Assembly (NCBI GenBank): GCA_965214245.1
Contig: CBDCBL010000005.1
Location: forward strand, 28,657 to 92,656
DNA: 64,000 bases
Source of the DNA: Acidobacteriota bacterium
GTDB taxonomy: Bacteria > Acidobacteriota > UBA890
Direction of reading: 5' to 3'
Shown here: positions 58,807 to 63,999 of the stretch, one piece after another
Layout: each line of letters begins with the position of its first letter
How positions within the stretch are numbered: the stretch's first letter is position 1
The notes under the pieces: generated by a model
Databases searched by the model: none
Seen by the model: only the letters and a program-made list of their open reading frames with translations
Told to the model about the DNA's origin: nothing
Made by a program: the position numbers and the translations under genes

Positions 58807-59839
58807 CTAGCATCGACCAATACGTCGTTGCAGAGCGTCGCAAACTGGCACGTATTGCACCCGCGAGTCGTCCACGGGTTCCGGCTGCGTGAGGAGATGG
58901 CGGCTGAAAAATGCGTGCATGTCGGCAAAGAACTTGCGGGCCGCCTCCTCCTTCCCTTCGCTGGGAGTCGGCCCTAGCCCGCCATACCAGCCGAAAGCGT
59001 GTGGCTGACCCGGATAGATGACGGACTCAACTTCTTTTCCGGCTGCCTTCAGGTCCGGGATCAGGAACTCGTTGTGGATGTCGACGAACACCTCTTGCCT
59101 CTGATTGAGGCCGCCCACCGCGAGGAAGATAGGGCCACTTATCTTACGCAACTCCTCCTGGGCCGATCGTCGGATCTCTGGGGTGAGGAACTGGCGAGGA
59201 TCCTCGAGCAGTCGCTGTCCAACCCGGGCCACATCAAGCATGTCGTTCAGGCCAGCGATGAGACCATCGTAGCCGGACCACAGCGGCGGCTCTTCTGCGG
59301 CGACGGCAGCAACCTCGTTCTCGGCGGCCACCTTCAGGGCCAAGTAACCTCCATAACTGACGCCGTACACGACCGCACTGTTCGGGTCCACTGCGGACAT
59401 GCTCTTCACGTGGTCGACAATAGCCAGTTGGGGATCTCCCAGCGGCGGAGCGTCCCCCGGGAGACCCTGTTGGGCGAGAACCGTTACGTACCCTGCCGCC
59501 AGAAACCGGGTGAAGGTCGGGTTCGTCAGAGCCCTGATCTTCAATCGACTCATCTCACCAACAACGCCGTCCCTAGCCTCGCTCGCGGCGGGCGAGCTGA
59601 TGATCACAACGGCCGGGAAAGGACCTTGGCCTGGGGGTCTGCGTAGTACGCCGATCGCAACCTGTCCATCGTGGGTCTCAGCAGAGAGTTCCTCGACCGG
59701 GCTGATCTCCTCAGAGATCGATGGCCTAGTGACAGGGGATTGCGCTGTGGCAAAGGACACGCCCCAGCACAGGATCAACAGGGCCAAGACAGCGAATCGC
59801 CCCGTACCGAGCGGTTCGAGGATTTCGTAATGACCGAGG
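58807..59839 (-). CDS. Secreted alpha/beta hydrolase; original 5' codons displaced to ~61300-61313 by the IS1111 insertion
   Basis: GPFPAVV, GVSYGG nucleophile elbow, YPGQPHAF; removing the IS restores MVGKTLGHYEILEPLGTG... Confidence 0.8.
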
Positions 59840-59916
59840 TAGCGTAAGGAAAAAGGGCGTTTCTTCACTGGTAAAGTCCGGTTTGCCCAACCAACTCAAC
59901 CAGGAGAAACGCCCTC

Positions 59917-60944
59917 ATGGAATCGTATGTTGGCATCGACGCACACTGCAACGCGGGACTGGAGCTCGCCGCCATAGAGGCACGCAGTGGAGAACTGCTA
60001 TGGCGGGACCGTTGTCGGCTCGATGGGGATCTGTTGCGAGAAGCGATCGGTCGGGCTCCCTGTCCATGTACGGTGGTATTCGAGCAGGGAGAGTTAGCCA
60101 CGTGGCTGCACCTGGCGCTTTCGGGTTGCTGCAAGAACCTGATCGCTGCCGACCCCCGGCGCAACCGCTTGATCTCAACCTCGCCCGACAAGGACGATCC
60201 GTTCGATGCGCTGGCCTTGGCGCAGCTGGCCAGGGGGCGATATGTGCGGGAAGTCTATCAGCCACCTGTGGCGTTCTTGAACCTGCGGCTGCAGGTGCGC
60301 CACCACGATCGACTCAACCGCCACATCAGCGCCTTGAAGAACCAGGTCAAGGCCCTGTTCCGCTACCACGGGATTCCGGTAGTAGGCGCCGACGTCTATT
60401 CACCGGAGCACCGGCCCGCATTCCTGAAGTGTTTGCCCGAAGCCGCCCGGCCGCCGGGCGAAGACCTGCTGGGCATCCTCGATGTGGCCGCGGAGAAAAA
60501 GGACGCAGCGCTGCAGTTGCTAGTCCAACACGGGCGGCGGTTTCCACCCGTCAGACGGCTTATGACGGTTCCGGAGATCGGCAACGTCAGGGCAGCGACC
60601 TTCGCCGCGTATCTGGTCACCCCCACCCGCTTCCCCTCCCGCTCTCACATCTGGAGCTACTGCGGCTTTTCGGCCTCACCCGACGACGAAGCGGCTCACA
60701 CATCGAGCCGGTACGCCTGCGACGAGGCTTCAACCGGCACCTGAAACGGGTCATCAAGAGCGCCGTCGAGCGAATGGTCTTGCGGCAGGCAGATCCTTTC
60801 GCCGCGGCGTATCACGTTCGACTCGAGCGCGGGACGTTACCGACCCGGGCCAAGCTGGCGATTGCGCGAAAGCTCATCGACGTGCTGTGTGCCCTTTGGA
60901 ACAGCAAGGAGGACTACGATCCAGAACGTGTGAGAGTTGTCTAA
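59917..60944 (+). pseudogene. IS110 recombinase/transposase with a frameshift at ~60667
   Basis: YVGIDAH, VVFEQG, KDDPFDA (DEDD); after WSYCG the TTTTC run shifts frame to FGLTRRRSGS...GFNRHLK...AIARKL. Confidence 0.88.
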
Positions 60945-61280
60945 TTGCCCGGCGTCGACACGCGCGGTTTGCGCCTTGTCACATGCGCAGGTCCCACCGC
61001 CTGCGGCGGGACCTGCGCCGCGGGAAGCCTCAACAAAACCCTTAGACTTCGAGTCTCCGACCAAGGTTAGGCTCCGCGGCCCCGTAGTCCCAGACGCAAC
61101 CATAGGCCTCGAGTCTCGGATAGGAGCATGGGCTGCTCGTTCAAGCCCCAACAATCCTGAAGTTGCTCGCGCCGCGACCCATGACGGTCGACCCCCCCAA
61201 ACGACGAAGCCAAACCGGACCAACGCCCCAGGCCAACTTGAACATCTCTACCCCATCTTTAGGGAGAGTGCGTCTGTTGA
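60945..61280 (+). ncRNA. Putative bridge/seek RNA-encoding region of the IS1111 element
   Basis: Non-coding 3' end with a duplicated motif (61043, 61103), each copy ending in a sequence that matches the target end or the donor end; strand and exact ends are inferred. Confidence 0.65.
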
Positions 61281-61373
61281 CCTTTTTCCTTATAGGAGGG
61301 TCTTGCCGACCACTGTGGGTAGTCCGTTCCGGGAAGCGTGGGCGGCTAGCCTATGTGCAATGGCAGTTACGTT

Positions 61374-62741
61374 GGATGTGTCCCGAAGTTTGTAGAAAAT
61401 CGTCTGGCGTGGCTCCGAGCTTGGACGTTTGATGTTACCTGCTACGCGGCCAACTCCTCCTGTTGGTCGATGATCGCGGCGAGATGCCGGTACCCGTCGA
61501 TGCGGCGCATGCGGATCTGCCCGAAGGCGATCAGCCCCCACAGCAGCGTCACCCCGGCCGCCTCGGTGCTGAACGATCCCTGGGTCTTGGTACGGCGACG
61601 GAACTCGCGGTTGAGGTTCTCCAGTGGGTTCGTCGTGCGCAGCGTCTTGCACATCGGTTTGGGGAACTCGTAGAAGGTCAGCAGCACCAGCCCCGCTTCC
61701 TCGAGGCTGCGCGCCACCGCCGGCACCAACCTCGACCACTTGCGCACGAAGTTGCTGTACGCGGCCCTCGCCTCGCTGCCGTTTGCCGCCTTCACGATGC
61801 GGTCCCAGTCTCGTTTCAGCTCGTCGTGGGCGTGTGACGGGCAATGCTTCAACAGATTCTTCCACTTGTGCTGAAGGCAGCGCTGCACCTTCGCTTCGGG
61901 CCACACCGTCGTCGCCTTGGCCAGCCCTTTGTGGCCGTCGGCGATGATCAGCCGGGGCGGCCGAAGACCTCTTTGCTCTAGGTCCTCGATCAGCCACTTC
62001 CAGTGACACCCGGCCTCCGAAGCGGCCCGACGCAACGCCACCAACACCTTGCGCCCATCTTCCGCCACTCCCAGCGCGGCGAAGATCGGCACCGACACGA
62101 CCTGCCGCGCCAACCTCACCTTCAGGTGGAACCCGTCCAGGTACACGATCGGGTACGACTCACCGGTCAGATCGCGCTCGCACCACGTCCCGAACAGCTT
62201 CTTCAGCCGCCCCACCACCCTCGAGATCGCGCTCTTCGAGAGGTTCGCTTCACCCAGCAGCGGCGCGAGCGCCTTGCGGATCCGTCGGCTATTTGCACCC
62301 GCCAGGTACACCCCTAGAATCGCCTCGTCGACTTCCTCGGTGCGCCGTTGATACCGCGGCAGGATCGTGCTGCGGAACTCCCCGGTGCTGCCGTCCTCTC
62401 GCAGCAGCCGTCCCCGTGGTACCTCCAGATCCTGCGGCCCCTGCGCCATCGTGATCTGCCGCCGATACGTCCCGTGCCGATATCCTCGCCGCGAGCCGTT
62501 GCGCTCGTACGGCCCGCATCCCAACGCCTCGGCGAGCTCCTCCTCAAGCGTGATCGTAATCGCCTCCTGGATGCGGCTGTGCAGCAGCTCCTGGATGGCG
62601 CTACGGAACTCGATGACCGATACCTCTCCCGTGCTACCGTTGCTCATGGTGTGACCTCCTTGTTGTCGCCGTTTCCAGCGACTCGTTTTTCCTGCTCGGA
62701 GGTTACGCCATTTCTTTTTCTACAGGACTCGGGACGGATCC
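61374..62741 (-). mobile_element. IS256-family insertion sequence
   Basis: 26-bp imperfect IRs GGATGTGTCCCGAAGTTTGTAGAAAA vs GGATCCGTCCCGAGTCCTGTAGAAAA; flanks GTTACGTT / TCTACGTT (partial TSD). Confidence 0.88.
61442..62647 (-). CDS. IS256-family transposase (intact ORF)
   Basis: GYRHG, LEVPRGR, YLDG, IIADGHKGL, QRCLQH, LRTTNPLENLNREFRRR. Confidence 0.95.
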   Translation of the reverse strand: MSNGSTGEVSVIEFRSAIQELLHSRIQEAITITLEEELAEALGCGPYERNGSRRGYRHGTYRRQITMAQGPQDLEVPRGRLLREDGSTGEFRSTILPRYQRRTEEVDEAILGVYLAGANSRRIRKALAPLLGEANLSKSAISRVVGRLKKLFGTWCERDLTGESYPIVYLDGFHLKVRLARQVVSVPIFAALGVAEDGRKVLVALRRAASEAGCHWKWLIEDLEQRGLRPPRLIIADGHKGLAKATTVWPEAKVQRCLQHKWKNLLKHCPSHAHDELKRDWDRIVKAANGSEARAAYSNFVRKWSRLVPAVARSLEEAGLVLLTFYEFPKPMCKTLRTTNPLENLNREFRRRTKTQGSFSTEAAGVTLLWGLIAFGQIRMRRIDGYRHLAAIIDQQEELAA

Positions 62742-62949
62742 TCTACGTTCAACGGGGGGCACTGTCAACTCAACGAAGCTGTGGCGAGATCGGCCAGTCT
62801 CGGCCGCGCGACGCCCCGAGCGTGCGCAGCAGAACGCCCTGCGCCATAGCGGTCGGGCTGCTCGGACACGCCGTTCCCGTCCGTCTCATCAAGGTCGAGG
62901 GATCGAACAACACAGAGAAAGGGGCGGGGGATCTTGCGCCGCGGGCGGA

Positions 62950-63999
62950 TCAGTACATGCGGATCCGTAGCACGCGCACTGGAGCGCTACCGACGCCCGG
63001 GCGGATGAAAACACCGACGACGCCCGAAGCGAAGCGACGAATCGAAAGCTCTATGTGAAACGTCTGCGCACCGTCCGGTGTCACGGGCATGCGGGTCGCG
63101 ACCAGCTCCTGCCCTGTCGACTCGAAGTCGAGGACGAGTGCCGCGCCCTCATCGGCCGGGGCGACGACGACGTCGAGTGTGCGGTCGAAGGTGCCGAGTG
63201 GTGGTAGAAACAAGCTCGCGCCGGTCGCTGGGAGCATCAGACCAGGCCGCCGATCGGGGTCTTTGGACCATTCGGGGCCTAGGAAGTCGAAAGCCTTGTT
63301 GCCGTCCAAGCGCACGTCGAGGGGTACATCGGCAGCGGGGATACTTGGCGCCTCGAAGATCGCGAAGTCGGGGCCCTGGTTGCCACCGACGAAGGCGTCG
63401 ATGGTGATGTATTCGACCCGTGTCAGCTCCTCGAGAATCGGATGACTGAGGAGCGTCTCCTGGACGACGATCCAGTCGTGCGCGCCGAGCGCATGAAGAC
63501 CGCCGTCGAGCCATTCCTGCAGCGAGGGGACACGATTCAGGTCGAACCGTCGACGGTCCAGATCGAGCCACCACCGCTGGATGAGAAGGCGGTCACCGGT
63601 CGACGTGTTGTTCTCGAGCCATTCCTCGGCGATCCGGTAGGTCGGCGTCGCGAAGCGGCGGTCCAACTCCGTGGCGGTGTGCCAGACGACAGGCGACACG
63701 AGCATGAGCGCCACGATTGGACCTGCGGCCCAGGCGAACCGGGGGGCGGGGCGGGCGGCAGCATCAGCACGCCGGCCCAGGTACGCCGTCACCGCCACGA
63801 GCCCCGCCGCGGCCGCGATCGCGGCGAACGGCGCCGCCGGGTACACCCAGCGTGGAAACTGCGAAGGGCGACCGGAGACGAACCCGATGTAAACAAGCGG
63901 ATACACCGCGAACAGCCACCAGCGCCATCTGCCCGCGGCGAGGTGATAGGCTATGGTGGCGGCGCCGAGAATGAGCAGCGGCCAGCCGACGACGCGGTT
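62950..63999 (-). CDS. Membrane glycosyltransferase-like protein (GT-C/ArnT-like), 3' part only
   Basis: Frame is open to the window edge; TM segments, FPRWVYP motif, then AEEWL...GDR soluble domain. Confidence 0.55.
   Translation of the reverse strand, partial: NRVVGWPLLILGAATIAYHLAAGRWRWWLFAVYPLVYIGFVSGRPSQFPRWVYPAAPFAAIAAAAGLVAVTAYLGRRADAAARPAPRFAWAAGPIVALMLVSPVVWHTATELDRRFATPTYRIAEEWLENNTSTGDRLLIQRWWLDLDRRRFDLNRVPSLQEWLDGGLHALGAHDWIVVQETLLSHPILEELTRVEYITIDAFVGGNQGPDFAIFEAPSIPAADVPLDVRLDGNKAFDFLGPEWSKDPDRRPGLMLPATGASLFLPPLGTFDRTLDVVVAPADEGAALVLDFESTGQELVATRMPVTPDGAQTFHIELSIRRFASGVVGVFIRPGVGSAPVRVLRIRMY

Follow-up and report, generated by a model that had tools for sequence, protein, structure and literature searches.

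An IS1111-group insertion sequence with a predicted guide RNA apparently set on a kinase-start motif, in an acidobacterial hydrolase gene with a kinase-type start

The insertion sequences (ISs) that come closest to the element reported here are the IS1111-group elements with seekRNAs, ISEc11, ISPa11, ISKpn4 and ISPst6, for which Siddiquee et al. (2024, PMC11187229) describe a DEDD transposase, subterminal inverted repeats of 11–13 bp, a long non-coding stretch behind the transposase gene, and an RNA in which the complement of the top strand stands 5′ of the match to the bottom strand, the two overlapping at the insertion point. The second point of comparison is IS621 of the IS110 group, whose bridge RNA, as described by Durrant et al. 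(2024, PMC11208160), has a target-binding and a donor-binding loop, in each of which two guides, left and right, flank a dinucleotide core; for IS1111 elements the same account predicts that 93% have a bridge RNA in their right end. The subject of this work is a 64,000-nt stretch of an Acidobacteriota genome (contig CBDCBL010000005.1, positions 28,657 to 92,656; hereafter the window), and in it an element at 59840–61299 that interrupts the 5′ end of a gene for a secreted alpha/beta hydrolase. This element is an IS1111-group member of the IS110 family, and thus of a known kind, an assignment that follows from its domains, inverted repeats, tail position, site specificity and guide layout. It very probably carries a two-loop RNA set on a motif at the start of Ser/Thr-kinase genes, and sits in a kinase-type start grafted onto the hydrolase gene.

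The features named above for the seekRNA elements and for the loops of IS621 recur at this locus, with AG (CT on the other strand, as in IS621) as the presumed core and with non-coding stretches of 355 nt downstream of the transposase gene (60945–61299) versus 77 nt upstream of it (59840–59916). Set against the accounts cited, the terminal extensions beyond the inverted repeats are 6 and 4 nt with an AG core, and ambiguous by the shared GAGG, where the IS1111 elements described have 7 (left) and 3 (right); the RNA lies in the right end and not, as in IS621, in the left, with reversed guide order; and the target is a coding motif at the start of a kinase family, whereas ISPpu9 and IS621 are described as using non-coding repetitive extragenic palindromic (REP) elements (PMC11208160 for IS621). 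Also unlike the seekRNA elements of PMC11187229, every copy in this genome has a broken transposase gene, and the system is known in silico only. An intact transposase is the only IS1111-group feature that is missing, and membership by descent stands. A literature search returned no report of an IS110/IS1111 element aimed at kinase genes, although supplementary natural-target tables, for example those of PMC11208160, may hold coding targets.

The boundaries of the element are ambiguous within the four shared bases GAGG. On the plus strand the left junction reads ...ATGACCGAGG|TAGCG (GAGG at 59836–59839), continuing into the IS as ...ATGACCGAGG|TAGCGTAAGG... at 59836–59840, and the right junction reads ...TTATAGGAGG|GTCTTGCCGACCAC (GAGG at 61296–61299), the stretch 61296–61313 being ...CCTTATAGGAGG|GTCTTGCCGACCAC. 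The minus strand of the right flank reads GTG (61311–61313) GTC GGC AAG AC, and that of the left flank goes on with C CTC GGT CAT TAC GAA ATC CTC GAA CCG CTC GGT ACG GGG. The frame without the IS is thus a kinase-like start, MVGKTLGHYEILEPLGTG, followed by a 343-codon alpha/beta hydrolase; a preliminary description of this DNA had proposed that removal of the element at GAGG restores such a frame, and we read it directly at both junctions. Within the element, DEDD_Tnp_IS110 (PF01548, E 1.8e-08) and Transposase_20 (PF02371, E 1.7e-05) match the truncated open reading frame (ORF) 59917–60744, in which the DEDD domain and half of Transposase_20 are encoded, and the C-terminal ~90 codons fall in the frame of 59883–60944; by precomputed annotation most listed family proteins carry both domains. 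The 29 members of the transposase family alignment show 49–96% identity. A search of genome contigs with the transposase as query recovered the record of the relative G013 alone, and a 400-genome search of the phylum gave no other close relative, the next best being ~30% identical.

Copies of the element were then mapped over the whole genome (G000; 4.64 Mb in 10 contigs, of which C5, C6 and so on are the labels). BLAST with the region returns seven full copies at 98.6–100% identity, two left-end fragments of 246 nt, one 73-nt right-end fragment and several 35–39-nt matches to the left flank only, and an exact-motif scan gives nine left ends and eight right ends, with one solo right end at C10:167833. 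Every full copy (7/7), both left-end fragments and the solo right end share one pair of flanking halves, and the common insertion position is at codons 6–7 of Ser/Thr-kinase-type starts, G-K-T-L|G-x-Y. Four occupied sites (C9b, C9p, C10a and C10c) lead straight into a Pkinase domain from model position 1, at 177–188 bits, and at a fifth occupied kinase site, C6, the kinase is broken further by another IS. The genome contains 53 Pkinase matches, and a six-frame scan finds 39 kinase P-loop starts, five of them interrupted; the earlier identification of the motif as the N-terminus of Hanks-type kinases, a large family, is borne out by these figures. The restored target exists uninterrupted at a real kinase start (C8:177925–177944), and the two flank halves match the restored kinase site by BLAST with E 2e-14 and 5e-06.

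The same codons are hit in other sources: by an element of 85% DNA identity (L002) in G013, a relative of another genus, with different flanks; by a second right end in G013 (L010); and on the metagenome contigs L044 and L045. The flanks of L002 and L045 are long enough to be identified, and they read as kinase. The ten element ends in this genome (10/10) and the four loci from other sources are all antisense to the target gene. In IS orientation the target is 14 nt, GACC-N-AG-GGTYTTG; in gene orientation it is C AAR ACC CTN GGT C, encoding K-T-L-G at positions 4–7. The target implied by the guides reads CAAAACCCTNGGTC in gene orientation and the occupied sites read CAAGACCCTCGGT(C/A), with CAAGACCCTCGGTC, CAAAACCCTTGGCC and the TT-core form CAAAACCTTAGGTC as natural variants. 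Among empty kinase-type starts, only three have a CT core and two or fewer mismatches to the guides (C8:177934, C10:1171437 and C9:848233), so that good sites are nearly saturated; two further uninterrupted starts have a single mismatch, in the core (TT, a TTA leucine codon), and the rest have at least three.

The RNA that would read this target is encoded in the tail of the element. We compared the tails of ten metagenome loci with those of G013 and G003, and found that they share two stem-loops, each with an apical hairpin and a flanking internal loop; RNAalifold on 10 sequences gives 39 pairs, 9 of them with compensatory changes. In the first loop, an 11-nt 5′ side complements the top strand of core plus right flank, and an 8-nt 3′ side equals the top strand of left flank plus core. 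In the window copy, the 5′ guide gives AGGGTTTTGTT as its reverse complement, and the junction reads AGGGTCTTGCC. Conservation across the family extends to the second loop, which matches the ends of the element itself: AUAGGAG as given in Table 1, and the 5′ side (61092–61102) through a reverse complement that has 7 of 11 positions in common, by eye, with AGGTAGCGT, the core plus left end. By homology with the IS1111 elements that have been tested, insertion would be RNA-guided, the two guides of the first loop pairing with the two strands of the 14-nt target and exchange taking place at the AG core (CT on the other strand), a position read by eye from junctions across elements.

Guides and targets vary together. 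Over all elements with both junctions, an element's own guides agree with its own junction at 14–17 of 19 positions (7–9 of 11 and 6–8 of 8), whereas cross-class scores are mostly 1–6 of 11 and 3–7 of 8, the exception being the similar targets of L047 and L052. For six target classes the own pairing scores 93 of 114, the best of 720 permutations, and the runner-up at 91 swaps two elements with similar targets; in L044 the guides match without error all 8 nt of the left junction and, in the right junction, the first 9 nt. These matrices were made without L003 (from G003; the contig end cuts the element and only the right flank is usable) and L045 (right junction incomplete); L048 lacks both ends, and L054 was set aside at 24% identity. 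In 7 of the 10 matrix elements there is a mismatch at the fourth base from the 3′ end of the 3′ guide, a base that is therefore probably not read. A common insertion site and a match and covariation of guide with target are thus established by comparison of junctions, and they support the earlier suggestion that the guide is tuned to a conserved coding motif of a multicopy family; all mapped copies, in the genome and in relatives, lie at the G-K-T-L|G-x-Y codons and none at an unrelated site, and kinase genes here carry target-like starts. A sister lineage (L046, L049, L050 and L003) has other target guides and sits in ...GAGCGC-AG-CGAGTAGCC..., and L047 and L052 sit in ...CCGG-AG-GCGTA.... 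Two candidates were discarded: an RT-3 Rfam match on the minus strand at 60730–60863, which at 20 bits against a cut-off of 40.5 was taken as chance, and a k-mer guess, CCGACCA (61057–61063), matching the right flank 9 nt from the core, which was dropped when the family alignment gave the true register. Contigs from the RNA run X15, which stem from a relative 90–95% alike and are uninformative on expression here, leave 61150–61211 uncovered and have near-zero depth over 61088–61149.

Table 1. Features of the locus, with positions in the window unless a contig is named
Feature	Position	Strand	Remarks
IS1111/IS110-type insertion sequence	59840–61299	+	1460 bp including one GAGG copy
Left subterminal inverted repeat TAAGGAAAAAGG	59845–59856	+	12-nt exact reverse-complement partner CCTTTTTCCTTA at 61281–61292
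Transposase gene, frameshifted at T-run 60667–60670	59917–60944	+	ORFs, Pfam, copy comparison
Non-coding region with predicted seek/bridge RNA	60945–61299	+	355 nt
Target-binding stem-loop (predicted)	61017–61080	+	apical hairpin 61043–61057; consensus structure
5′ guide AACAAAACCCU	61032–61042	+	complementary to top strand AGGGTCTTG
3′ guide GACCAAGG	61059–61066	+	equals top strand GACCGAGG save one position
Donor-binding stem-loop (predicted)	61087–61133	+	AUAGGAG (61120–61126) equals right end TTATAGGAG
Putative circle-junction promoter, TTGACC in right end	61277–61282	+	read from sequence
GTG in IS left end	59866–59868	-	in frame with downstream gene, MKKRPFSLRY + LGHYE...
Native part of secreted alpha/beta hydrolase gene, DLH / Peptidase_S9 type	58807–59800	-	from signal-peptide hydrophobic core (RFAVLALLILCWG...) to stop codon
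Kinase-derived stub L-G-H-Y-E-I-L-E-P-L-G-T-G	59801–59839	-	in frame with hydrolase; left GAGG 59836–59839, core AG 59837–59838
Upstream half of kinase-type 5′ module	61300–61373	-	codons 1–5 (GTG 61311–61313), leader, -10-like TAGGCT (61348–61353)
IS256-family element	61374–62745	-	Transposase_mut gene 61442–62647, Pfam E 3.4e-79; other copies 99.5–99.8%
Other six full copies of the IS1111-group element	C6:182329–183789; C9:824113–825574 (C9a); C9:877250–878710; C10:669623–671084; C10:1186764–1188227; C10:1360004–1361468

The start of the hydrolase gene is foreign to it. Above the Pfam cut-offs the product matches Peptidase_S9 (E 7.9e-07) and DLH (E 8.2e-07), and its translation has a GxSxG-type nucleophile motif, GVSYGG, consistent with a catalytic role. 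Among 89 homologues found, we read 12 full-length N-termini (46–78% identity): all 12 begin with an ordinary signal peptide, most of them MR(R/K)xMRFAVLALLIL, and none has the kinase motif. The kinase-type start is therefore a graft, by this comparison of N-termini, as the preliminary description had surmised. The window protein joins its homologues at RFAVLALL, which means that about five native codons, probably MRRPM, were replaced by 18 kinase-type codons. Pkinase (PF00069) does not match ORF 58807–59868, nor does any of the 53 matches in the genome lie beside C5:88436–89996; kinase-likeness being confined to the first 18 codons, the gene is a hydrolase with a kinase-type start. In the proposed reading a kinase-type 5′ module (promoter-like boxes, leader and first 18 codons) has taken the place of the native start, the IS cuts this module between codons 6 and 7, and the IS256-family element splits the module's promoter. 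The same upstream architecture, with -35-like and -10-like boxes, precedes uninterrupted kinases, and the IS256-family element would sit between these two boxes. No orthologue of the hydrolase was found in 25 relatives at E 1e-30. As an observation on the kinases themselves, paralogues and the G013 orthologue share an upstream module, CCCGTTGATCGAATCG...TAGGCT with a 35-nt leader (for example C9:535085–535150, C6:182250–182329 and L002:2961–3050), in which an inverted repeat overlaps the -35-like box; the shared module suggests common regulation of the kinase family.

Four lines of evidence weigh against the account given so far, and we take them together. The first concerns the guides: at every occupied site in this genome there is a guide mismatch, the guide having an A opposite the C in GTCTTG, in addition to the N position; the exact target at C8:177925 is unoccupied; and an Rfam scan of 59700–61450 gives no family for the tail. 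The second concerns the transposase, the gene for which is frameshifted in all seven copies, with four Ts in three of them (T4) and six in the other four (T6), while copy C9:877250 has an additional premature stop after 28 codons. The element would now be immobile on its own unless slippage restores the frame, and the copies look non-autonomous. The third is that no circle junction was found in the contigs of the public runs compared with the locus; a circularized IS would put the TTGACC of its right end 17 nt upstream of TAGCGT in its left end and so form a putative circle-junction promoter, as in other IS110-family elements. The fourth is that DNA well beyond the target is shared between copies: the left flanks of C10c and C9p are 98–100% identical over ~300 nt and then 60–70%, C6 and C10a are 100% identical over 190 nt and ~80% further out, and C9p and C7p have in common a 47-nt stub, a truncated IS and 1.7 kb of nested IS. 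Copy number is thus partly the result of host copying of IS plus flank and overstates the independent guided insertions, of which there are perhaps ~4 in this genome rather than 10, given three left-flank and four right-flank types, plus four in other sources.

The frameshift itself is not an assembly artefact, since T4 is seen in the contigs of two public runs and T6 in those of one; the in-frame form occurs in contigs of a relative 90–95% alike. Related loci have TTC or TTT at this place (8/8; T2–T3), an in-frame T5 was never seen, all 29 family proteins read CGFGLT at the frameshift site, and an intact 341-residue transposase is present in G013. T-run state and tail variant block occur in all four combinations among the copies, which calls for recombination or recurrent change.

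These observations lead to the strongest competing explanation, according to which the kinase-like flanks travel with the IS. Host recombination would copy a block of promoter module, IS and 40 to 300 nt of kinase, using homologous exchange where paralogues are involved and short homologies at other places; the hydrolase would have received its start together with the IS, and many same-site copies would not be RNA-guided. We consider this possible, if on the doubtful side of even. It accounts for copies that are at least 98.6% identical though all seven transposase genes are broken, for the shared flanks of C10c/C9p, C6/C10a and C9p/C7p, and for the other grafts in the genome, where a kinase-type module, always with the IS, also precedes a pyrroloquinoline quinone (PQQ) dehydrogenase, a PMT_2 glycosyltransferase and an ankyrin-repeat fragment. 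The IS is present at all four grafted genes (4/4), and the stubs, 38–48 nt long, end in the P-loop coding stretch. At the PMT_2 gene, the start reads ...GGIDPLGAGDPIQW in the same-genus orthologue versus ...YEILEPLGAGREPICW here, which places the junction within a 21-nt stretch of the native start that was already identical to the kinase at 17 of 21 positions. The uninterrupted 20-nt target occurs 0–2 times per genome in 40 relatives (seven have any; a reversed control gave none), against one empty and ~10 occupied here, and the window offers a parallel in its IS256-family element, whose following 400 bp are likewise repeated.

Against such joint travel stands the window copy itself, since no other copy has both flanks like it. 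Its body is closest to C6 (1 difference in 1461), from which its flanks differ at 4 of 39 and 4 of 53 positions, and its stub is closest to C9a (C9:825574; 1 of 39), where the right flank differs at 26 of 53 positions and is alike over the first ~22 nt only; this mosaic is not decisive, as concerted evolution of IS bodies could yield it. The stub has 1 to 11 differences of 39 from the other six copies, 4 of 39 from the true kinases C6, C9b and C10a, and the first 53 nt upstream of the IS, which share 92% identity with the DNA ahead of the true kinase C6, have 4 to 6 differences of 53 from three other copies. Moreover, the left outer boundary of the graft, ...ATCG|CCCCG..., has neither an AG core nor evident homology, and the covariation of guide and target and the same-site insertions in three other sources with unrelated flanks are independent of any copying within this genome. 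IS110-family elements are described as moving with more or less DNA than the canonical unit, at boundaries that half-match the guides (modular circles of ISPpu9, PMC12288879; expanded loci, bioRxiv 10.64898/2026.08.14.744561), which is a possible route for co-mobilisation of flanks. Unlike in those accounts, the outer edges of the grafted block have no visible AG core or half-match, and the PMT_2 junction lies in short homology of a host type. A search for recombinase-type outer boundaries met one GTCTTG hexamer, 9 nt inside the hydrolase and in the wrong orientation, which we set aside as chance.

A bolder form of the same idea is that the transposase-dead element has become a passenger of its own target, IS plus 40–300 nt of kinase flank acting as a mobile 5′ cassette that rewires and interrupts the hydrolase, PQQ dehydrogenase, PMT_2 and ankyrin genes. 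We put this forward tentatively and think it on the whole unlikely; if true, an RNA-guided IS would have turned the promoter, leader and start of a kinase into a mobile 5′ cassette. In a weaker variant, the T4/T6 run would act as a slippage switch, with its rare in-frame form as the driver of transposition bursts. The arrangement resembles so-called mobile promoters, 5′ regions reportedly near-identical between unrelated genes (Matus-Garcia et al., NAR 2012): four unrelated genes likewise have one promoter, leader and set of first codons before them, while here the module is the start of a real gene family and each graft carries an RNA-guided IS.

Distinctly unlikely, in our view, is a third explanation, that the grafted genes are former kinase loci in which the body of an IS-killed kinase was deleted up to the next gene, fusing the stub to the hydrolase. 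The module is here its own sequence variant, ~9% from the nearest, as expected for a separate paralogue, the hydrolase and PMT_2 fusions are in frame, and the PQQ dehydrogenase, before which the stub ORF ends, has retained its own start; these points speak for it. The history of the PMT_2 gene speaks against it: the OPT-to-PMT_2 order, with the OPT transporter as ancestral neighbour, is kept in 4 of 6 relatives examined and broken in this genome exactly at the graft, and the OPT gene, at C9:938245, is found here on a different contig, followed by no PMT_2, no kinase and no reciprocal product, which points to rearrangement and not to local deletion. Four deletions all ending 38–48 nt from an IS would also be an odd coincidence. 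That the kinase-like start is native to the hydrolase, a chance likeness or an assembly chimera at a repeat is scarcely credible, with no point found in its favour, the motif in 0 of 12 homologues, matches to kinase paralogues of 35–38 of 39 and 47–49 of 53 nt, and contigs from two public runs (which may include the source sample) that cover 59600–59834 without difference and bridge the hydrolase-stub junction at 59800/59801.

If the RNA-guided reading with a grafted start holds, this is a clear natural case of an IS1111-type guide set on a conserved coding motif of a multicopy family and not on a non-coding repeat, with a landing pad that gene duplication renews and of which each insertion removes one paralogue. 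For work on bridge and seek RNAs it offers a natural target series with synonymous variation (AAG versus AAA, CTN, the empty TT core) usable for mismatch tolerance; for genome evolution, kinase 5′ modules on four unrelated genes in one IS-laden acidobacterial genome, and a near-identical IS family in which every copy lacks an intact transposase.

The hydrolase gene is most likely silent, because the IS cuts the module between codons 6 and 7 and the IS256-family element appears to split its promoter. The earlier suggestion that an in-frame GTG in the left end of the IS may keep the gene translated stands in part: ORF 58807–59868, beginning MKKRPFSLRY, is real, and GTG and open frame are present at every copy; its use as a start is unsupported, with no Shine-Dalgarno-like run upstream by eye and no promoter-like site in 59700–61500 in a scan of sigma-70-type sites. 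Distant family members, by eye, have no IS-borne start codon. We take the GTG to be incidental, chosen by gene callers (P0001) because it gives the longest ORF. Contigs of the four runs compared, which drop rare forms, include none that bridges an empty hydrolase site.

Next to the hydrolase locus, the IS256-family element and the 400 bp that follow it in the window (62746–63145) recur at C6:1928–2327 and C6:99154–99553 with 98.75% identity, so blocks of IS plus flank were duplicated for a second, unrelated IS family too. The repeated flank comprises an intergenic region and the 3′ end of the gene at 62950–63906 (minus strand), the protein of which is 87% identical in G019, of another family in the same order, versus 44–50% in same-family relatives, which hints at horizontal transfer of this region; unrelated DNA follows the homologue in G019, which is uninformative on the hydrolase context.

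Two minor features of the IS1111-group element may be added. The ribosome-binding region of the transposase gene at 59899–59915 (AGAAACGCCCT), ahead of the ATG at 59917, has its complement in the left end at 59848–59862 (AGGGCGTTTCT), with a computed 7-nt match, ACGCCCT, and the remainder read by eye; such a hairpin could hide the transposase start in read-through transcripts, as in other IS families. The two left-end fragments are both truncated at nt 213 by a second IS that is itself split by a third, 1.5 kb long and present in at least 10 copies, and this nested block (C9:976906–979000 and C7:516749–518660) is present twice, each time with 47 nt of kinase flank: one copy precedes a kinase, the other an ankyrin-repeat fragment.

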